Sequence record: DRR723986_7888
Reading direction: 5' to 3' (one strand)
DNA: 42,472 nt
Within the stretch, counting starts at the first letter, position 1. Every line of letters starts with the position of its first letter. Positions 29,799 to 39,854 of this stretch are shown here, one piece after another. A program made the translations under genes and the position numbers. A model generated the notes under the pieces. It made no database searches, was not told the DNA's origin, and worked only from the letters and a program-made list of their open reading frames with translations.

Positions 29799-30479
29799 TC
29801 AGCCCAGGAATTCGGCGCGGGTGCTTGGATCAGCCTTGAAGGCACCGCCCAGGGCCGTGGTCCGGGTTTGGGAATTGGTGTCCATCACGCCGCGTGATTT
29901 CACGCAGTAGTGGACGGCGTTAATGGTGACCGCAACATCCTCGGTGTTGAGCAGGGTCTGGAGGGCGACCAGCACCTGCTGGGTGAGGCGCTCCTGAACC
30001 TGCGGCCGCTGGGCGAAAAAGCGCACGATGCGATTGATCTTGCTCAGGCCGATAATTTTGTCGCTGGGGATGTAGGCTACCCGAGCGCTGCCGTCGATGG
30101 TCACAAAGTGGTGTTCGCAGGTGCTCACCAGGTCGATATCGTCAATGCGCACCATTTCCTCAACGTTCATCTTGTTGTCGATGACCGAAATCTTGGGAAA
30201 CTGGCTGTAGTCCAACCCGGAAAAGATCTCGTCCACGTACATTTTCGCGATCCGGTGCGGGGTCTCACACAGGCTGTCGTCCCGCAAATCCAGGCCCAGG
30301 GTGCGGGTGATGTCGGTGAAGCTTTGCTTGATCCGCTGGTATTTCTCGTCCCTGCTCAGGCCAGTATGGATCAAAGGCGTTTCAAGACCGCGGTCCAGCA
30401 GGGCATCGCGGACCATTTTCGCCTCCGCGGACAGGGTTGATGGGAAGGACAGCGTGTTTTCAGCTAGCACGGGTTCCAT
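29799..30479 (-). CDS. folE: GTP cyclohydrolase I
   Basis: [54 protein letters not shown] at 30479 after GGAG. Confidence 0.96.
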
Positions 30480-30494
30480 GGCGATCTCCAACAG

Positions 30495-30621: not shown

Positions 30622-31413
30622 TCAGGGTCGTTGCAGGAGCAGGGTTTGCTGGGCGGTTCCAAGCAGGCCATGCTCGTCAAACAGCATCGCCGTGGACAGC
30701 CCCATACCATTTGCCTCCCAGCGGGATACGAAGCTCGCGCCGATCCACTCGGAAACGGGCAGCCGGTGCAGGTGGATGGACAGGTCCGGGTTGACGAATT
30801 TGACCACCGAGACGTCGTCGTTGCGGGACAGGGCATTGCCGCAGTCGGCGAGGGGGCACAGACGCTGGAAGGGCGACATGGGCTCGTCGGCAAGCAGCGG
30901 TGGGGTCCGCATCCAGACGGTATTCGGCCCGTGACGAAAGGGCTGGCCTGCTGGTTCACGCAACTCGATGCTGTCAGCGAACGCCGGCAGGCCATGCCCG
31001 CCGTGGATTCTGGGAAATTCTGCCGGCTCAGAGCGATTAAAATCCGGCGATTCCCACGCCGTGGTGGCGATGTCGCCGATGTCGGCCTGGGTCAGCAGCA
31101 GGGCACTGGCAGTCGCGCAGAGCACATCCTTGCGGTCGATCAGGCGCAGGGCGACCGCGGCGACCATGCGGCCCTCGCGGACCACCTCGGCCTCTACCCG
31201 GAAGCCGGCTACCGGCACCGGCCGGAACAGGTCGAGGGTTAGCCGGGCCAGTTGTTTGCCCGGCACCGCCAGCTCCGCGCTGCGCGCGACTGCCGCCGCG
31301 ACCGGGCCGCCGTGACAGGCATCTGCCGACCAGGGACCTCGAGCGCCATCGTTACCGACGTACATGCCCTCGGCGTCGAGGAAGAAAAAAGGCTGGGCTG
31401 GGCTATTATTCAT
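30622..31413 (-). CDS. Acyl-CoA thioesterase-like (double hot-dog) protein
   Basis: ARGPWSADACHGGP, RLTLDLFRPVP, VVREGR, LADCGN, FVNPDLSIHLHRLP. Confidence 0.85.
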   Translation of the reverse strand: MNNSPAQPFFFLDAEGMYVGNDGARGPWSADACHGGPVAAAVARSAELAVPGKQLARLTLDLFRPVPVAGFRVEAEVVREGRMVAAVALRLIDRKDVLCATASALLLTQADIGDIATTAWESPDFNRSEPAEFPRIHGGHGLPAFADSIELREPAGQPFRHGPNTVWMRTPPLLADEPMSPFQRLCPLADCGNALSRNDDVSVVKFVNPDLSIHLHRLPVSEWIGASFVSRWEANGMGLSTAMLFDEHGLLGTAQQTLLLQRP

Positions 31414-31575
31414 GGAAAGGTGTCTGATCCTGTGCTCGGGCACCTGAGTCTGGTTTGTCGGCGCCGGATTGGTGAGAAAGTCGACTATCCTGCAGCCATT
31501 CGTCTATCGTGTGCAAGCGAGAGCTGACGTCTCGCAGCAGTCGGTGCATGGGAATACACGCAAAGGAGTTATCAC

Positions 31576-32598
31576 ATGGTGCAAGCTGCGCCCATTAAGG
31601 TGGGTATCATGGGTTTCGGCCAGACAGGTCGCCAGATTTACGAACTGGCCTCGCGTAGCGGGGATGTGGAGGTCGTTGCCATCGCCGACATCGGCAAGCC
31701 GGATATCCTCCACTACCTGCTCCGGTCCGAAGTAGAGCAACCGGAGCGCCATGAACTCCAGGGCAATTTCCTGGTCAACCCGAATTTCCGCGCGCGGCTG
31801 ATGCGCATCGACCAACCCGCCGAGATGCCCTGGGATGTGTTCGGGGTCGACGCGGTGATTGATTCGACCGGCAAATACCGCGAGCAACGCCACATGCAGG
31901 AACACCTGGACAATGGTGCCGGCCGCGTCCTGTTACGCACCCTGCCGCTGGACGGCATCGACCGTATCGTGATGCCGGGCATCAACGAGGCGGCGATCGC
32001 GCCGGCGGACCGGATGATCTCCGCGGGGTCCGCTACCACCACCGCGTTGTGCCTCCTGCTGCACATTCTTTCCCGTCACTTCAGCATCGAATGCGGCAGC
32101 ATGACAACCGTTCACGCCTATACCTCGGACCAGGTGCTGCAGGACTATGCGGGCAGTGATTTTCGCCGCAGCCGGTCCGCAGCGGAGAATATTATCCCCA
32201 ATAACCATGAGGCTGGTCTCTGGCTGGGCCGTGTGCTGCCTGCCTTCGAGGGCAAGATTCTCACCTCGGCCCTCAACGTCCCCATCCACGAGGGTTGCCT
32301 GCTGGATACCAACCTGGTTTTCCCGGATAGCGCGGTCAGCGCCGAGGACGTCAACCAGGCGGTTCGCGACAGCGCCCCGGACTACCCGGGCATCGTCAAC
32401 GTGGTAGAGGACCCGATTGTTTCCTCCGACGTAATCGGCAATCCGCACTCCCTGTTGTTCGACACCAAGGGCACCATCAAGGCCGGCGACCACACGATCA
32501 AGATGCTGGCCTGGTATGAAAACCTCGGCCACGCGGCGCGCCTGCTGGACGTGGTGCGCCTGTATGCCAGGCTCGACCGCCAACAGGAGGCCGCGTGA
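31576..32598 (+). CDS. GAPDH-like protein lacking the catalytic cysteine (putative pseudoenzyme)
   Basis: Full-length GAPDH fold: GIMGFGQTGR, VIDSTG, TTVHAYT.DQ, RRSRSAAENIIP, PIVSSD; active site reads SAGSATTTAL instead of SNASCTTNCL; AAAGGAG RBS. Confidence 0.85.
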   Translation: MVQAAPIKVGIMGFGQTGRQIYELASRSGDVEVVAIADIGKPDILHYLLRSEVEQPERHELQGNFLVNPNFRARLMRIDQPAEMPWDVFGVDAVIDSTGKYREQRHMQEHLDNGAGRVLLRTLPLDGIDRIVMPGINEAAIAPADRMISAGSATTTALCLLLHILSRHFSIECGSMTTVHAYTSDQVLQDYAGSDFRRSRSAAENIIPNNHEAGLWLGRVLPAFEGKILTSALNVPIHEGCLLDTNLVFPDSAVSAEDVNQAVRDSAPDYPGIVNVVEDPIVSSDVIGNPHSLLFDTKGTIKAGDHTIKMLAWYENLGHAARLLDVVRLYARLDRQQEAA

Positions 32599-33596
32599 TG
32601 AGAGTTGCTATCAATGGCTTCGGTCGCATCGGGCGCTCGGTTTTTCGTATCCTGGAAGAATCCGCCAACATCGACGTAGTAGCGATCAACGACCTGTTCG
32701 ACCGCGAGGCGCTGCGCTACCTGCTCAACTACGACACGGTGATGGGGCCTTTCGGCAAGAGCCTGGCCCTCGAGGATGATGAGTTTGTTACGCCCAAGGG
32801 GCGTACCAGGCTGCTCAGTGAACGCAACCCCGCGGACCTGCCCTGGGCTGAGCTGGGCATCGATGCGGTTGTCGAGGCCACCGGGGTATTTCGTGCGCGC
32901 GAGCAGTTGCAGCAGCACCTGGACGCCGGTGCCGGGCGGGTCGTGCTAACCGTGCCGGCCAAGGACCCGGTGGATTACACGGTGGTGCTCGGCGTCAATG
33001 ACGACGGGCTGGGGCCGGAGCACCGGATCGTCTCCAATGCCAGCTGTACCACGAATTGCCTTGCCCCCATGGCGAGCGTGCTGCACCAGCAATTCGGGAT
33101 CAGCGAAGGCGTGATCAACACGGTCCACGCCTACACCAATGACCAGCGCCTGGCCGATGTGCCGCACTCTGATTGGCGGCGGAGTCGGGCAGCAGCAGAG
33201 AACATCATCCCGACCTCCACCGGGGCGGCGAAAGCCGTGGGTGAGGTGCTGCCCCAGCTCAAGGGGCGCCTGCATGGTATTGCCGCCAGGGTGCCGGTTC
33301 CGGATGGTTCGGTGGTTGACCTGTTCGTCAAGCTCGAGCGCAATGTGACGGTTGACGAGGTCAATGCGGCGGTGCTCGCCGCATCGTCGTCGGATAGCCT
33401 GCGGGGGATACTGCAGTATTCCGATCAACCCATTGTCTCGTCCGACATCATCGGTAATGCGCATTCGTCGATTTACGATAGCAGCTTCAGTGCAGTTACC
33501 GGCGGGCGCTATCTGCGAGTCCTCAACTGGTACGACAACGAATGGGGCTATTCCTGTCGGGTCTGTGACCTGCTGGCCCGTTTTGACAGCTGGTAA
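32598..33596 (+). CDS. gap: Type I glyceraldehyde-3-phosphate dehydrogenase
   Basis: INGFGRIGR, SNASCTTNCL, VHAYT, TGAAKAV, RVP, WYDNEWGYS; ATG overlaps upstream TGA (TGATG); AGGAGG at 32585-32590. Confidence 0.93.
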   Translation: MRVAINGFGRIGRSVFRILEESANIDVVAINDLFDREALRYLLNYDTVMGPFGKSLALEDDEFVTPKGRTRLLSERNPADLPWAELGIDAVVEATGVFRAREQLQQHLDAGAGRVVLTVPAKDPVDYTVVLGVNDDGLGPEHRIVSNASCTTNCLAPMASVLHQQFGISEGVINTVHAYTNDQRLADVPHSDWRRSRAAAENIIPTSTGAAKAVGEVLPQLKGRLHGIAARVPVPDGSVVDLFVKLERNVTVDEVNAAVLAASSSDSLRGILQYSDQPIVSSDIIGNAHSSIYDSSFSAVTGGRYLRVLNWYDNEWGYSCRVCDLLARFDSW

Positions 33597-33602
33597 TGCG
33601 CG

Positions 33603-36242
33603 ATGAGTAATGTCCCGGATCAGTCGCTCTCTGCCACCCTGCGCGCCAATGTCAGTGCGCTCGGTGCCTTGCTCGGTGAAGTGGTTGCGGCTGCCGAGGG
33701 GGAGCCTTTGCTGGATCTTGTCGAGCGCATCCGGGTCCTGTCGCGCTCGGCACGGGACGGCACGGCGGGCGCGCGCGAGGAGTTACTCGAACTGCTGCAC
33801 AAGCTGGAAGACGGTCAGCTGGTGCCGGTGGCTCGGGCCTTCAGCCAGTTCCTGAATCTGGCCAATATTGCCGACCAGCAGCATACCGTATCGCGGGAGA
33901 TGGACCCGCTGAATTCAGCGTCGCAGGCGCTGGCCAGGACCTTCGAGGAACTGCTGCAGCAGGGGGTGTCCCGCGACGGACTGCTGGCCGCGATCCGCGA
34001 CCTGAAAATAGAGCTGGTGCTCACCGCACACCCCACCGAAATCATGCGCCGCACGCTGATTCACAAGCACAGTGAAATTGGCAAGTGCCTCGGCCAGCTC
34101 GAGTTGCAGGGCCTGACCCCGCGCGAGCGCGACCAGCTGCAGGCCAGGCTGCGGGAACTGATCACCCAGATCTGGTTTGGCGACGATTTCCGGATTAATC
34201 GGCCGACTCCGGTGGACGAGGCCAAGTGGGGTTTTGCCGTCGTCGAGGATTCCCTGTGGCAGGCGGTTCCCGAATTTCTGCGCCGCCTTGACCGCGCCCT
34301 GCAGGACCTGTGCGGTGCCCGCCTGCCGCTGGACGCGGCGCCGGTCACCTTCGTGTCGTGGATGGGCGGTGATCGCGATGGCAATCCCAATGTCACAGCC
34401 GAGGTCACCGAGGAAGTGTTGCTGCTCAGCCGCTGGCAGGCAGCGGACCTTTACCTGCGCGATATAACGGCGCTGGTAGAGGAATTGTCCATGACCCGCG
34501 GTAACGACCAGCTGCGCGCCCTGGCAGGTGATGCGCATGAGCCTTACCGCGCGGTGTTGCGGGGTTTGCGTGGCCTGCTGCGCGATACGCTGGCAGCGCT
34601 GGAAGCACGTCTGGCCGGACAGCCGGCGGGAAATGAGCGCCTGTTGCAGCACCGGAACGAGCTGCTCGAGCCCCTTGAGTGCTGCTACCAGTCCCTGCGC
34701 GAGGGCGGTATGGCGACCGTGGCCGACGCGGGTTTGCTCGATCTTATCCGTAAAGTACGCTGTTTCGGGGTGCACCTGGTGCGGCTCGATATTCGTCAGG
34801 ACAGCGATCGCCATACCGAGGCCTTGTCAGAACTGACCCGCTATCTCGAACTGGGCGATTACCGCGAGTGGGACGAGGCACGCCGCCAGACGTTCCTGCT
34901 CTCCGAGCTGGCAAGCCGCCGACCCCTGTTCCCCTCGCGCTGGACGCCCGGTCCGGCAGTGAGCGAAGTACTGGCTACCTGCGCTGTGACCGCCCGGCAG
35001 CCGGAGGAATCCCTGGGGGCATATGTTATTTCAATGGCGCGCCAGCCCTCGGATGTGCTGGCGGTTCACCTCTTGCTCCGGGAGTCGGGGGCGGAACGCG
35101 CGATTCCGGTCGCGCCGCTGTTTGAGACCCTGGACGACCTGTCCCGGGCGCGCCAGGTGATGGACGCCCTGTTGGTCAGCGACTGGTACCGCAGCTACAT
35201 CGATCATCGCCAGATGGTGATGATTGGCTACTCGGACTCCGCCAAGGATGCGGGCAGCATGGCGGCGGGCTGGGCCCAGTACCGGGCCCAGGAGGAGCTG
35301 CTGGAAAGCTGTGCCGAACACGGCGTGGGCCTCACCTTGTTCCACGGCCGTGGCGGCACCATTGGTCGCGGCGGTGCCCCGGCTCATGACGCCTTGTTGT
35401 CGCAGCCACCCGGCTCCCTGCGCAATGGCTTGCGGGTGACGGAGCAGGGAGAAATGATTCGCACCAAGCTTGGCTGGACGTCGCTGGCGGTGAAGACCCT
35501 GGCCCTGTACACCACGGCAATCTGCCGTGCCAATTTGCAAACGCCGCCGGCGCCGGATCCCGAGTGGCGGCGCCTGATGGACATCCTGGCGGAGGAGTCC
35601 TGCGCCGCGTACCGGGCGGTGGTTCGTGGCCATGCGGACTTCGTCAGCTATTTTCGTGCTGCCACCCCGGAGCAGGAACTCAGCAGCCTGCCCCTGGGTT
35701 CGCGGCCGGCGCGCCGGGCCGGGGGAGGTGGTATTGAGAGCCTGCGCGCAATCCCCTGGATCTTTGCCTGGTCACAAAACCGTCTCATGCTGCCCGCCTG
35801 GCTGGGCGCCGGAGCGGCACTGCAGGCGGCGCTGGACCGCGGTGAGGCGGATACCCTGCACGCCATGGGGGCGCAGTGGCCGTTTTTCGCCGCGCGCCTG
35901 TCTATGCTGGAAATGGTGTTTGCCAAGGCCGATGCCGGATTGTCTGCCTATTACGATGAACGCCTGGTGCCCGCCGAGCTGCAGGACCTGGGCATCGAGC
36001 TGCGTCAGCAGCTGGCAAGCGACCAGCAAACGATATTGGCTATCGTCGGCCGGCAGGCGCTGCTGGACGAACAGCCCTGGATCAGGCAGTCGTTGCAATT
36101 GCGCAATGTCTATACCGACCCCCTGAACTACCTGCAGGCGGAGCTGCTGCAGCGCAACCGGGTAGCCCCGCGCGCGGATCTGGAGCGGGCGATCATGGTC
36201 ACCATTGCGGGAATTGCCGCCGGGATGCGCAATACCGGCTAG
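33603..36242 (+). CDS. ppc: Phosphoenolpyruvate carboxylase
   Basis: [49 protein letters not shown]-terminal MRNTG; 879 aa. Confidence 0.97.
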
Positions 36243-36383
36243 GGCGGGTTATTGCGCCGCCTGATAAATGTTGCCCGGTCCTGTTCCCCTGCCCGGTGGA
36301 TGCAGTAGAATCGGTACCCGGTTTGCCAGCCGGCCACTGTCAATCCCTTTTCCCATCAGGCTACCCGCAAGAGGTTGATAATC

Positions 36384-36956
36384 ATGATGAAAACATTCAA
36401 CGCTGTACTGCTGTCCACATTGCTCGCTCTCGGCAGCCAGCTGGCGCTGGCCGACAGCTACAGCGATACCGTGACTGCATTTCGCAATGCTGGCGAAACC
36501 AGCGGCTTCTTTCAAAACGCCTATGGCTACGCAGTATTCCCAACCATCGGCAAGGGCGGTATCGGCATCGGTGGCGCGCACGGGAAGGGCAGGGTCTTTG
36601 TGCAAGGTAACCACGTGGGCAACTCGTCCATGACCCAGGTGACACTCGGTTTCCAGCTCGGCGGCCAGGCCTTCAGCCAGATGATTTTCTTTGAGGATGA
36701 GCGGGCTTTCCGCGAATTCACCACCGGCAACTTTGAGTTCAGCGCCCAGGCGACTGCCGTTGCGCTGACGGCAGGTGTATCGGCAGAGGCCAACACCGGG
36801 GGCGGCACCACCGCCGGCGCCAGTGGCGGTCGCAATGATGCCACCACCGTGCACGGTGGCTACCGCAAGGGAATGGCGATCTTTACTATTGCCAAGGGCG
36901 GCCTGATGTATGAAGCGGCCGTGGGCGGTCAGAAGTTCAGCTACGAATCGCTCTGA
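36384..36956 (+). CDS. YSC84/SYLF-related exported protein
   Basis: Signal peptide; YAVFPTIGKGGIGIGGAHGKG, GFQLGGQ, GGLMYEAAVGGQKF. Confidence 0.8.
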   Translation: MMKTFNAVLLSTLLALGSQLALADSYSDTVTAFRNAGETSGFFQNAYGYAVFPTIGKGGIGIGGAHGKGRVFVQGNHVGNSSMTQVTLGFQLGGQAFSQMIFFEDERAFREFTTGNFEFSAQATAVALTAGVSAEANTGGGTTAGASGGRNDATTVHGGYRKGMAIFTIAKGGLMYEAAVGGQKFSYESL

Positions 36957-37648
36957 GTGACTCCCGCCAGCTGGCGCGCCTGCGCCAGCGCCCCGGCGGG
37001 AACTTCTCCTGACAGGATGACGTGCCAGCACCGGGGCCCATGAGCACCCAGCACCATGTGCATGGCGATATCCGCGGTACTCGACGGACCTGAAATGATA
37101 TTGATACCCCGGGGGCGCTGCTCTGCGGGGATGGCGTCTATTCGCTGCCAGGCATCGTCCAGGGTGCCAAGCAGATCATCCGTATGCACCAGCACGATGT
37201 GGTCTTCCGGCAGCAGATTGTTGGCCGCCGGGTTGGCCTTGCCGGTGTAGGTTACAACACTGCCAGTTTCCACTATCCCGCAGCGCGCGTAGCTCAGCGC
37301 CGCCGGATCACCGTCTACCGCCGTGCCGAAGCGCGGTAGCAGGCCCGCGTCCCGCCAGGGCATGGCGGCCAGGCGCGGGTCATTGCCGGCAACCAGCTTG
37401 TGGCTGCGATGGCGCTGGTAGAGGTAGCGCGCGACGGCTTTGACCGTCTCGGAACGGCTCTGCGCCACATCTACCGAACCCTGGTTGCGCAGCACGTTTG
37501 CCAGGAAGGCGCTGCAGGGTTCCTCGCCGGGTAGCCTGGCGCTCGGTCCGCGGCCCAGAGCCTTAAGTTTCGCGTCGATGGCAGGCGCCTCGCCACTGTG
37601 GCTGGCGTGACGGATGCGCGCAAGGATCTCGGTGCGGGCCTCACTCAT
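36941..37648 (-). CDS. lutC: Lactate utilization protein C (LUD domain; LutC/YkgG/LldG)
   Basis: ARTEILARIR, GIVETGSVV, LLPEDHIVLV, ISGPSSTADI..VLGAHGP; downstream of lutB. Confidence 0.85.
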   Translation of the reverse strand: MSEARTEILARIRHASHSGEAPAIDAKLKALGRGPSARLPGEEPCSAFLANVLRNQGSVDVAQSRSETVKAVARYLYQRHRSHKLVAGNDPRLAAMPWRDAGLLPRFGTAVDGDPAALSYARCGIVETGSVVTYTGKANPAANNLLPEDHIVLVHTDDLLGTLDDAWQRIDAIPAEQRPRGINIISGPSSTADIAMHMVLGAHGPRCWHVILSGEVPAGALAQARQLAGVTQSDS

Positions 37649-39056
37649 CGCGCTGTTGCTCCATGTACTGCTGCATAAAAGTGCCCGCCTGGGGTGCCGG
37701 GAAGTCCCGCTCAGCGGTCCAGCCTGCCGCCATGGGCAGGCTCCCGAAAGCGCCTTTTTTCCGGCCGAGGCGGTGCAATAGCGGTATTGCCAGTCCGGTA
37801 ATGAAGCGATAGAGCCGCGGTTGGCGCAGCAGCCAGGCGTGGACTTTCAGGCCACGGCGCCAGCGCTTTGGCGAGAGTCCGGCGCGGGCTTCCTCGTGGC
37901 GCAGATCGCGCAGCAGGTCGGGTAGGGGAATATTAGCGGGACAGACCTCCGCACAGCGCCCACAGCTGGTGCAGGCGTTGGGCAGCACGTGGCTCTCCTC
38001 CAGTGAGGTGAGTAGCGGGGTCAGTACCGAGCCCATGGGTCCGGGATAGACCGAGCCATAGGCGTGCCCACCGGCTCCGATGTACACCGGGCAATGGGTG
38101 AGACAGGTACCGCAGCGGATGCACTGCAGCATGTCGCGGTAATCGCTGGCCAGGATGTCGCTGCGATGATTGTCCAGCAGGACGATATGCGTCTCCAGCG
38201 GGCCATCCGGCTCCTCCGCTCGTCGCGGACCCGAGTAATAGCTGGTATAGCAGGAGATGGGCTGGCCGGTGGTGGACCGAACGAGCAGGCGCAGCAGGGC
38301 GTTGGCGTCTTCCGCACGCGGCAACACCCGGTCCACGCTGGTGCAGATGATCAGCACCGGCGGCAGGCTGGCGCAGAGGTCACCATTGCCCTCATTGGTC
38401 ACTAACAGGCTGTAGCCGTTTTCCGCGATCAGGGCATTTGAGCCAATGATGCCAACGTCGGCATTCAGGAAGTGGTCGCGCAATACCTGGCGCGCCTCAC
38501 CGACCATCGCCGGCGGGTCAGCCAGTTCCCGGTCGCCAAGGTCGTGCTTGGCCAGGAATAGCTCGCGAATCTCATCCGGCGACTTGTGCAGGGCGGGGCC
38601 GACGATATGGGAGGGCTTCTCGCCCGCCTGTTGCACGATGTACTCCCCGAGGTCGGTCTCAATGACCTGCAAGCCGGCCTTTTGCAGGTGACTGTTGAGC
38701 TCGGTCTCCTCGGTGATCATCGACTTGCCCTTGGCGATACGCTGGGCGTCGTGCTGGCGGATGATGCCGAGCACAATCTCATTCATCTCATCGCCATCGC
38801 GGGCGAAATGGAGCTGGTTGCCGTTGTTTTCGGCTTCTTCTTCGAAGCGCGCCAGGTAGTGGTCCAGGTGGTCCAGTGCATGCTGGCGTACCTTTGCCAG
38901 ATGATCCCGCAATCCCTGGAAATCACCGAAGCCATCGACCGCCGAATTCCGCTTGCCGGGCACAAAGGCGCCGAGCAGGTCCCGGGTCAGTACCTGCGCC
39001 GGTTTTTCCAGCGCCTCGCGGGCGTGTTCGGGAAATGCATTACTGTCGATCTGCAT
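37641..39056 (-). CDS. lutB: Lactate utilization Fe-S protein B (LutB/YkgF/LldF)
   Basis: KGKSM..EE, ETDLGEYIVQ, PSHIVGPALH, VTNEGN, two CxxCxxCxxxCP ferredoxin motifs, YPGPMG. Confidence 0.92.
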   Translation of the reverse strand: MQIDSNAFPEHAREALEKPAQVLTRDLLGAFVPGKRNSAVDGFGDFQGLRDHLAKVRQHALDHLDHYLARFEEEAENNGNQLHFARDGDEMNEIVLGIIRQHDAQRIAKGKSMITEETELNSHLQKAGLQVIETDLGEYIVQQAGEKPSHIVGPALHKSPDEIRELFLAKHDLGDRELADPPAMVGEARQVLRDHFLNADVGIIGSNALIAENGYSLLVTNEGNGDLCASLPPVLIICTSVDRVLPRAEDANALLRLLVRSTTGQPISCYTSYYSGPRRAEEPDGPLETHIVLLDNHRSDILASDYRDMLQCIRCGTCLTHCPVYIGAGGHAYGSVYPGPMGSVLTPLLTSLEESHVLPNACTSCGRCAEVCPANIPLPDLLRDLRHEEARAGLSPKRWRRGLKVHAWLLRQPRLYRFITGLAIPLLHRLGRKKGAFGSLPMAAGWTAERDFPAPQAGTFMQQYMEQQRDE

Positions 39057-39059
39057 CGA

Positions 39060-39854
39060 TCAGCTGTCCTCGGCCTGGCCGATGGCGGGCGTCGCGAGAT
39101 CGCCTGCCAGCAATTCGGCAACGTGTCGGACCTCGATATCCCGGCCCTCGCGCCGTGCCCGACCGGCCAGGTTGAGCAGGCAACCCAGGTCGCCGCCGGT
39201 GAGTATGTCGGCGCCGGTGCGCTCAGCATTGGCCAGTTTGTCGGAGGCCATCTTGGCCGACAGCTCCGGCATTTTGGCGCAGAAGGTGCCGCCAAACCCG
39301 CAGCAGACGTCGGTGCCTTCCATCTCGGTAACGGTGACCCCGGCCAGCGATGCGAGCAGGTCGCGCGGCTGCTGGCGTATACCCAGTTCCCGCAGACCGG
39401 CGCAGCTGTCGTGGTAGGTGACCTTGCTGGCCGATGTCCTGGCCTGGGCAGGGCTTATGCCCGCCACGTCATTCAGGAAGCTGGTCAATTCGTAGGTTTT
39501 GGCGGCCAGGTCCAGGGCTCGCTGGCGCCATTGCCCTTCAAGCAGGCCGGGGTAGTGATGACTGATCATGCCTGCACAGGAGCCCGATGGCAGTACCACG
39601 TATTCCCAGGGCTCCAGCATCTGGATGACCTGCTTTGCCAGGGGGACTGTGGACTCGTAATCGCCGGTATTGTAAGCCGGCTGGCCGCAGCAGGTTTGTG
39701 CCGGCGGCACATGCACCGCACAGCCGGCCTCTTCCAGTAACTTGATGCTCGCAAAGACGACCGACGGACGGAACAGGTCTGCCAGGCAGGTTGCGAACAG
39801 GGCAACCTCGAATCTCGGTCGGCTCGCCTTGCCTGATGTTCCACTGTTTGCCAT
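39060..39854 (-). CDS. lutA: Lactate utilization protein A (CCG-domain Fe-S; LutA/YkgE/LldE)
   Basis: ALFATCLAD, QTCCGQP, PSGSC, TYHDSC..LRELG, CCGFGGTF, DLGCLLNL. Confidence 0.9.
   Translation of the reverse strand: MANSGTSGKASRPRFEVALFATCLADLFRPSVVFASIKLLEEAGCAVHVPPAQTCCGQPAYNTGDYESTVPLAKQVIQMLEPWEYVVLPSGSCAGMISHHYPGLLEGQWRQRALDLAAKTYELTSFLNDVAGISPAQARTSASKVTYHDSCAGLRELGIRQQPRDLLASLAGVTVTEMEGTDVCCGFGGTFCAKMPELSAKMASDKLANAERTGADILTGGDLGCLLNLAGRARREGRDIEVRHVAELLAGDLATPAIGQAEDS

Follow-up and report, generated by a model that had tools for sequence, protein, structure and literature searches.

A conserved GAPDH-fold paralogue without the catalytic cysteine, encoded directly before gap, as a candidate non-catalytic partner of bacterial GAPDH

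Introduction

Why would a bacterial genome keep, directly in front of an intact gene for glyceraldehyde-3-phosphate dehydrogenase (GAPDH), a second GAPDH-fold gene whose product lacks the catalytic cysteine? The question is raised by sequence record DRR723986_7888, a stretch of 42,472 nucleotides (hereafter the window), in which two full-length GAPDH-fold genes stand in tandem and are followed by ppc. The first of them, named pgap here, is the paralogue in question, and the second, gap, encodes a canonical type I GAPDH. Few enzymes have been studied as much as GAPDH, and the bacterial form is regarded as a homotetramer. A preliminary description, made from the letters of the window, regarded pgap as a maintained pseudoenzyme subunit that may form a hetero-oligomer with Gap, sense NAD(P)(H), or link the fluxes through Gap and phosphoenolpyruvate carboxylase (PEPC).

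The comparative analysis reported here shows that pgap is a thiol-less GAPDH-fold protein that is under purifying selection and strictly paired with a specific canonical Gap. Such a conserved thiol-less copy before gap suggests an undescribed non-catalytic partner of GAPDH; the literature searched, with subscription journals lying mostly outside the coverage, contained no account of a Cys-less GAPDH that is coupled to gap in bacteria. To mixed Gap/pgap tetramers, in which pgap would be the non-catalytic subunit, we assign a probability of about 0.5.

Two overlapping GAPDH-fold genes in tandem

The features of the locus, in window coordinates, are the following.

31564..31568, + strand: AGGAG, a Shine-Dalgarno-like sequence 7 nt before the pgap ATG, read from the sequence
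31576..32598, + strand: pgap, an intact open reading frame (ORF) for a GAPDH-fold paralogue of 340 amino acids (aa) without thiol nucleophile
32032..32034, + strand: GCT, Ala153 of pgap, in the catalytic-Cys column
32116..32205, + strand: S-loop segment of pgap, residues 181-210, AYTSDQ...RRSRSAAENIIPNN, the best conserved part of the pgap family
32275..32277, + strand: AAC, Asn234 of pgap, in place of the Ps-site Arg (RVP to NVP)
32585..32590, + strand: AGGAGG, the gap ribosome-binding site, read from the sequence and lying within the pgap coding sequence
32596..32600, + strand: TGATG, the pgap/gap stop/start overlap (translational coupling), in which TGA (32596-32598) shares its A with ATG (32598-32600)
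32598..33596, + strand: gap, canonical type I GAPDH, 332 aa from the ATG, the invariant partner
33045..33047, + strand: TGT, catalytic Cys150 of gap, read from the sequence and the alignment
33603..36242, + strand: ppc, phosphoenolpyruvate carboxylase of 879 aa, starting 6 nt past the gap TAA, the lineage-specific third gene

The intact ORF, the ribosome-binding sites, the overlap and the position of ppc all lie where the preliminary description had placed them, and the Ala and Cys codons agree base for base. Its argument that a sequencing error is unlikely is borne out, as GCT and TGT differ at two bases and Cys is absent from all 76 full-length orthologues. The motif losses it listed also read as quoted: pgap has SAGSATTTAL where gap has SNASCTTNCL, NNHEAGLWL for TSTGAAKAV, LNVP for ARVP, GFGQTGR for GFGRIGR and WYENLGH for WYDNEWGY, while HAYT and the S-loop RRSRSAAENIIP are retained. 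The identity of ppc is well supported (PF00311, 1072 bits; NF000584, 1091 bits).

Both proteins contain the Pfam domains Gp_dh_N and Gp_dh_C (E-values of 1.9e-15 and 3.7e-38 in pgap) and are 39% identical over 334 alignment columns. The GAPDH-I model TIGR01534, with a cut-off of 367.2 bits, separates them, Gap passing with 421.5 bits and pgap remaining below with 235 bits; pgap is also under the cut-offs of all 8 other GAPDH/Epd models of NCBIfam that it matches. Epd, the erythrose-4-phosphate dehydrogenase, is a GAPDH paralogue of gammaproteobacteria that needs the same Cys. An identity of pgap as Epd was rejected, for pgap reaches 181 bits where the Epd cut-off is 539 and has lost the Cys; a separate Epd-like gene is found in Halieaceae.

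Residue numbers follow conventional GAPDH numbering, E. coli numbering being one higher, unless pgap numbering is indicated. In the excerpted text of PMC8615399, the Ps site that holds the C3 phosphate is formed by Arg232, Thr180 and Thr182, the new Pi site by Ser149, Thr151 and Thr209, and the catalytic residues are Cys150 and His177. Of the marks of a functional type I GAPDH, pgap fails four, namely the Cys, the Ps-site Arg, the Pi loop (S/T)TGAAKAV and the model cut-off. By its sequence it passes those of GAPDH fold and domains, His176, GxGxxG and Asp32. Compared with type I GAPDH (GapA; TIGR01534, EC 1.2.1.12), pgap thus shares the Pfam domains, the fold (TM ~0.87), His176, Thr179, RRSR, GxGxxG and Asp32, but lacks the catalytic Cys, carries Asn for the Ps-site Arg and has lost the TGAAK loop. 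Judged on these residues and scores, it is a homologue of the type I GAPDH family and not a functional member.

Conservation and selection in Halieaceae-type genomes

A genome scan with one genome per species yielded 80 loci. In 79 of them pgap is encoded at 66-84% identity, and the genome titles are mostly Halieaceae, Parahaliea, Halioglobus, Haliea, Seongchinamella and Kineobactrum; the one outlier (L080), a metagenome-assembled genome (MAG) titled Candidatus Neomarinimicrobiota, has a pgap of 47% identity. Full-length, stop-free pgap sequences number 76, including that of the window, and five loci are without one because of contig ends (L066, L069, L077) or a frame shift (L067, L078).

In the catalytic-Cys column of the 76 sequences, Ala occurs 63 times, Gly 10 times, Ser twice, Pro once and Cys never. 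The loss of Cys is universal among these orthologues. The Arg231 column is Asn in all 76 and the Thr208 column His in 75 of 76. The partner Gap sequences (n=75) have Cys, Arg and Thr, respectively, in 75/75, and their Cys, His, TGAAK and Arg231 are all invariant. Kept throughout the 76 pgap sequences are His176, Thr179, the RRSR arginines, Ser148, Thr150, the three GxGxxG glycines and Asp32; in pgap numbering, Asp38, His180 and Thr183 are invariant. Since the thiol nucleophile is lost and the Ps-site Arg is replaced by Asn in all members, pgap cannot perform the thioester chemistry of glyceraldehyde 3-phosphate (G3P) oxidation.

The ratio of nonsynonymous to synonymous substitution rates (dN/dS) was estimated by the Nei-Gojobori method from 695 pairs with dS <1.5, unsaturated estimates being available from 1118 of 2415 pairs. 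The median is 0.18 for pgap, with a maximum of 0.35, and 0.13 for gap. With 76 full-length sequences and a dN/dS this far below 1, as had been anticipated for a maintained paralogue, pgap is maintained by purifying selection and is not decaying. The notion that pgap is a pseudogene in decay, or an artefact of sequencing, is effectively refuted by this conservation. Its one foothold is the frame shift in two of the 80 genome loci, both from MAGs (L067:6001-7018 and L078:6001-7012), where pgap runs across two frames through either real decay or assembly error; it is met by the stop-free ORFs and their dN/dS of ~0.18, by the two bases that separate the Ala and Cys codons, by derived residues that are identical across phyla, and by the profile matches in 119/151 and 53/151 sampled genomes of two groups described below.

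The preliminary description had also pointed to the nearby Cys of TALCLL (Cys159) as a possible substitute nucleophile. This is ruled out by its occurrence, as the column holds Cys in 60 of the 76 sequences from Halieaceae-type loci and, family-wide, in no more than 26 of 86. A working GAPDH or Epd that employs Cys159, Cys173 or Cys241 as another nucleophile is, in general, scarcely credible: the near-constancy of Cys173 (75/76) and Cys241 (74/76) in the Halieaceae-type set speaks for it, but family-wide these residues are found in only 41 and 35 of 86 sequences, no Cys column of pgap exceeds an occupancy of 48% (86 rows), and the losses extend to the Ps-site Arg and the Pi loop. In addition, a bacterial GAPDH with a Cys-to-Ala exchange loses activity according to the excerpt of PMC4106842.

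Coupling of pgap to gap

In the Halieaceae-type set, a canonical gap lies directly after pgap in all 74 genome loci that leave 1 kb or more of room. Among 78 loci, the genes overlap by 1 nt in 63 and by 4 nt (ATGA) in 9 and are 0-5 nt apart in 5; in L078, with its frame shift, 349 nt separate them. This picture is extended by a scan of metagenomes, made with aligned distant members. The best 80 loci were examined, to which all metagenome counts in this text refer; 69 contain a paralogue with Asn in the Arg231 column (Asn-231) and 11 canonical GAPDHs only. Canonical gap is directly next in 55/55 loci with at least 600 nt of downstream room, and the other 14 of the 69 end at a contig edge, with no exception among them. 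The overlap measures 4 nt in 35 of these 55 pairs and 1 nt in 8, so that stop and start overlap in 72/78 genome loci and 43/55 metagenome loci overall. The synteny that the preliminary description had suggested checking is hence complete wherever there is room to see it. Since the arrangement recurs in every related locus long enough to show it, it is not due to chance.

The proposed link between Gap and PEPC fared differently within and outside the lineage of the window. It agrees with the Halieaceae-type loci, where ppc follows gap in 67 of 73 (the exceptions being L043, L046, L058, L064, L067 and L080), but not with the metagenome loci, where a ppc match near the pair appears in L136 only. 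The invariant partner is gap and not ppc, which is a Halieaceae-specific addition to the operon rather than a property of the family. On the other side of the pair, 72 loci leave room for a further gene; eda ends less than 150 nt 5' of pgap in 49 of them and lies 150-170 nt away in 3 more. This gene encodes 2-keto-3-deoxy-6-phosphogluconate (KDPG) aldolase (NF004325, 274 bits vs a cut-off of 241; for example L001:5161-5985, + strand). An eda-pgap-gap-ppc block is accordingly typical of most Halieaceae, from which it may be supposed that the pair in this family handles triose phosphate from the Entner-Doudoroff aldolase. The window itself is without eda, no match to it being present anywhere in the window. 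The place usually taken by eda holds a divergent ORF (window 30622-31443, - strand), whose only match is a weak, sub-cut-off one to a thioesterase family.

Three Halieaceae-type genomes (L085/G001, L087-L089) have four Gp_dh_C genes each, two of which are the pair. The third, examined in G001 (L085), is Epd-like, encodes 336 aa and lies between tkt and pgk, and the fourth is located within an open frame of ~490-500 aa. Owing to these two further GAPDH-like genes, the partner of pgap is one of three catalytic GAPDH types in those genomes. A scan for consensus promoters and terminators gave no sigma-70-like site and nothing exceeding shuffles, and a k-mer search of the upstream regions for an operator found none, the 3' end of eda surfacing instead.

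Occurrence beyond Halieaceae

An exhaustive profile-free search, reduced to representatives at 50% identity, delivered 150 proteins, of which 148 were aligned and two of more than 700 aa were left out. The combination of a non-Cys residue in the nucleophile column with Asn in the Arg231 column is found in 19 of the 148. In the 69 metagenome paralogues with Asn-231, the Cys column is occupied by Ser (37), Ala (26), Cys (4) and Thr (2).

In a FastTree phylogeny of 135 rows, nearly all Cys-less representatives fall within one clade of 22 rows (support 96). A quick IQ-TREE phylogeny of 81 rows places the upstream paralogues in a clade of 25 rows and their partners in one of 14 rows (support 99 each), and in both trees the partner Gaps form their own clade among GAPDHs. 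The sub-groupings L080/L136/L129, window/L001/L131 and L093/L107/L113/L116 are common to the two IQ-TREE clades. The pgap and gap trees mirror each other, which is the pattern of co-divergence. Outside the main upstream clade, unresolved near its base, are L155 and L166 (with Cys) and L159 (with Ser). Because of their position outside the main Cys-less clade, L155 and L166 may be intermediates.

With a profile built from 86 family members, pgap proteins score above 440 bits and partner Gaps ~370-390 bits, other GAPDHs being separated as well. At a threshold of E <=1e-125, the profile matches 119 of 151 genomes of the family Halieaceae (the family of G005, the genome with L044, Kineobactrum) and 53 of 151 genomes of a second, Marinimicrobia-like phylum (that of G004, the genome with L080). 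In the class of G005, at least 4 of 400 genomes match; this figure is a floor, five candidates having been scored per genome and one genome having remained unscored. The three matches in this class other than G005, all in gammaproteobacterial genomes, are genes with Ser in the Cys column and Asn-231 that are directly followed by canonical gap (3/3), and in these same genes (L174-L176) the Arg195 column of RRSR is Gln. Relatives of a soil-type member bear source names such as Candidatus Binatia, with MAG labels unchecked. Within the second phylum, the pair represents the sole GAPDH-like genes found in G004 and G139, and G037 has the pair and one match under the cut-off. One genome, G072, apparently has two pgap-gap pairs (C3:7483-8930 and C7:130395-131869).

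A scan of the neighbours of 50 pairs showed that the gene downstream of gap outside Halieaceae is pyk in L093, L098 and L099, pfk in L113, ppc in L136 and a GH57 glucanotransferase gene in L126 and L154; the remaining neighbours are unrelated genes. A glycolytic context hence recurs, with eda upstream in Halieaceae and pyk, pfk or ppc downstream in some lineages. Taken together, pgap belongs to an old clade that spans several phyla and is therefore not a local duplicate. A search of the ESM Atlas returned only clusters named GAPDH. Beyond what the preliminary description had covered are this multi-phylum clade, the eda gene upstream in most Halieaceae and the two further catalytic GAPDHs in the lineage of the window.

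The pocket, the S-loop and a possible mixed tetramer

An alignment of 86 family members has 33 invariant columns. They include, in pgap numbering, the three GxGxxG glycines, Arg19, Ser152, Thr154, His180 and Asn234, while Asp38 (the equivalent of Asp32) is conserved to at least 90% and Asn209 to 97%. When pgap and Gap are compared over 86 pairs, just four columns are fixed to 95% or more in both families and differ in residue, namely Asp96/Glu93, Ser201/Ala198, Asn209/Thr206 and Asn234/Arg231 (pgap/Gap). The S-loop (residues 181-210) has the highest conservation of the family, with a mean top-residue frequency of 0.79-0.88, whereas residues 211-220, the former TGAAKAV Pi loop, have the lowest (0.44, compared with 0.91 for the equivalent in Gap). 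The S-loop of pgap is 63% identical to that of its own partner, as against 38% overall.

The AlphaFold model of the pgap monomer has a pLDDT of 90.2 and a pTM of 0.89, and the S-loop, with block means of 46-64, is its sole low-confidence part. In known GAPDHs, which are obligate oligomers, the S-loop is ordered through inter-subunit contacts. The solved structures nearest to the model are GAPDHs only (Foldseek TM 0.85-0.88, the best ~0.87). A sequence search of the PDB gave canonical GAPDHs only among the matches listed (60 of 140), the best being 2ep7_A at 1.8e-58, and no natural Cys-less relative was among them.

These observations can be brought together in a mechanism in which pgap and Gap would be synthesised in fixed proportion from one mRNA and would co-assemble as mixed GAPDH tetramers. 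In these, pgap would be the non-catalytic subunit, probably still binding a dinucleotide, and might modulate the glycolytic Gap in its activity, cooperativity, stability or regulation. We infer co-assembly because the gene overlap implies coupled synthesis, because GAPDH is obligately oligomeric, because the conserved S-loop of pgap is compatible with that of its partner, and because a dead paralogue that shares an mRNA with its active relative should otherwise interfere with it. The mirrored trees, like the overlap and the S-loop conservation, bear on such a complex indirectly.

Several points weigh against this reading. Conservation of the S-loop and the interface fits a homotetramer of pgap equally well, and the covariation of evolutionary rates is unspecific: in partial Mantel tests, r(pgap,gap|ppc) is 0.50 and r(pgap,ppc|gap) is 0.57. 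Rate covariation was consequently rejected as evidence for a pgap-gap relation, as its signal does not exceed that of ppc, and both points weigh on the figure for the mixed tetramer. Four members of the upstream class with Asn-231 (L150, L155, L158 and L166) retain the Cys and also the catalytic His, and in L155 and L166 canonical gap lies directly after them; non-catalysis is thus no rule for the whole upstream class. The two frame-shifted genome loci also count here. In the Halieaceae branch, the NAD-contacting Arg10 and Ile11 of GFGRIGR are replaced by Gln (71/76) and Thr (64/76), which renders dinucleotide binding uncertain in that branch. A search for a fused pgap-gap protein of at least 596 aa returned four matches, none of which is a fusion. 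Separately, in P0126, a representative fragment of 329 aa, a pgap-type C-terminus runs stop-free into a gap N-terminus, by natural fusion or frame error. Finally, the invariant polar pocket formed by Ser152, Thr154, His180, Asn209 and Asn234 resembles, in its residues, a site for a ligand or substrate rather than part of a purely structural subunit.

The pocket also opens the possibility that pgap is a separate enzyme, either as a homo-oligomer or as one site in a mixed tetramer, with a new thiol-free NAD(P)-dependent chemistry, for example the His-assisted oxidation of a hydroxyl or gem-diol of a phosphorylated C3/C4 compound that is made or used beside Gap. We consider this unlikely, if by no means negligible. 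The former active site appears remodelled rather than degraded, Ser152, Thr154, His180 and Asn234 being invariant and Asn209 being kept at 97%, and the GxGxxG glycines are retained together with a nearly invariant Asp38; the excerpt of PMC12041015 describes superfamily members without the usual Cys that are still reductases. The residue in the Cys column, however, drifts between Ala, Gly, Ser, Thr, Pro and Cys, the former Pi loop is the least conserved segment (0.44), the only positively charged residue of the Ps site has given way to a neutral Asn, and the Arg195-column arginine of RRSR is Gln in L174-L176. Moreover, the variable gene neighbourhoods suggest no candidate substrate, and a strict coupling to gap in which the overlap is fixed is commoner among subunits than among successive enzymes of a pathway.

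The conserved Rossmann glycines and Asp32 equivalent, and a pocket that is remodelled yet conserved, would also suit a non-enzymatic ligand sensor or moonlighting protein (for NAD(H), triose phosphate or RNA) that acts on Gap or on other targets and forms no stable mixed tetramer. The excerpt of PMC4106842 also proposes that a trypanosomatid GAPDH-like protein (Cys152 to Pro) keeps its cofactor site for a ligand. Such a role is distinctly unlikely, since the stop/start overlap implies nearly 1:1 synthesis with Gap, an uneconomical way to regulate an abundant enzyme, and since GAPDH paralogues from one mRNA with compatible S-loops would be expected to mix by default.

A variant of the mixed tetramer may be mentioned as a long shot, in which the thiol-less subunit would be alive inside the complex through a Cys-independent reaction or through substrate handling. 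It could, for instance, oxidise the gem-diol of G3P directly, or capture 1,3-bisphosphoglycerate and hand it over through the His180/Asn209/Asn234 pocket.

Comparison with known systems

Two GAPDH paralogues are known to share a tetramer in plants, where chloroplast GapA and GapB form an A2B2 heterotetramer in which each of the two subunits is catalytic and regulation by GapB proceeds through a C-terminal extension that contains Cys. The arrangement proposed for pgap and Gap would resemble this in having two paralogues in one tetramer, one of them regulatory. Unlike GapB, pgap is thiol-less and has no CP12-like C-terminal extension, its C-terminus (LDRQQEAA) being without Cys.

A GAPDH homologue with a replaced nucleophile, as in pgap, is the trypanosomatid flagellar protein TbGAPDHL. 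In the excerpt of PMC4106842, its nucleophilic Cys is exchanged for Pro, the protein is predicted to be inactive and the cofactor region is conserved; there it is a eukaryotic protein of the paraflagellar rod, with no active GAPDH gene paired to it and with poor conservation between species. By contrast, the conservation of pgap is good and its linkage to gap strict.

Closer in kind are dead or impaired paralogues and subunits that are kept by selection and act in a complex with the active enzyme. Examples from the excerpted sources are the trypanosome AdoMetDC prozyme (PMC6221367), plant PDX1.2 (PMC6829848) and the catalytically impaired TrpA of Chlamydia, which regulates TrpB (PMC8376405). 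For pgap, a complex with Gap and an effect on its activity are predicted. Two marks of a prozyme-like protein are present in pgap, namely the loss of the catalytic residue in all 76 orthologues under purifying selection and the obligate co-occurrence with the active paralogue in the genome (74/74), metagenome (55/55) and further gammaproteobacterial (3/3) loci with room. The role of pgap might thus be like that of the AdoMetDC prozyme or PDX1.2, and by this resemblance pgap-gap may be a new case of a known kind of pseudoenzyme partner.

Flanking genes in the window

The pgap-gap-ppc block is flanked by the gene for FolE, GTP cyclohydrolase I (361.7 bits; window 29799-30491, - strand), and, on the other side, by a gene for a small protein (window 36375-36956, + strand) with a weak match to a SYLF-domain lipoprotein (39.7 bits vs a cut-off of 200). 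Three adjoining genes at 36941-39854 (- strand) resemble lutABC (lactate utilisation). The one at 39060-39854 has matches to Fe-S oxidoreductases only, all of them sub-cut-off; the one at 37641-39056 matches LutB with 435 bits, slightly below the cut-off of 444.8; and the ORF of 235 aa in the LutC position (36941-37648) has no match in NCBIfam.

Significance

The paralogue is present in about four fifths of the sampled genomes of Halieaceae and in about one third of those of the second phylum, with relatives in Binatia-labelled MAGs, and at least two genomes of the second phylum yielded no canonical GAPDH other than the partner Gap. Many pgap proteins are publicly annotated as "type I glyceraldehyde-3-phosphate dehydrogenase", a name that overstates their ability and leads metabolic reconstructions to count too many copies of GAPDH. 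If the thiol-less subunit were itself alive, the housekeeping GAPDH of Halieaceae, of the Marinimicrobia-like phylum and of the Binatia-labelled MAGs would be a two-site heteromeric machine, with chemistry that is new to the GAPDH fold. If pgap and Gap share a tetramer in which pgap is the non-catalytic subunit, the glycolysis of abundant marine and soil lineages would run via a hetero-oligomer of live and dead subunits, which would add a new level of control to the GAPDH step and a new case to the pseudoenzymes of bacteria.

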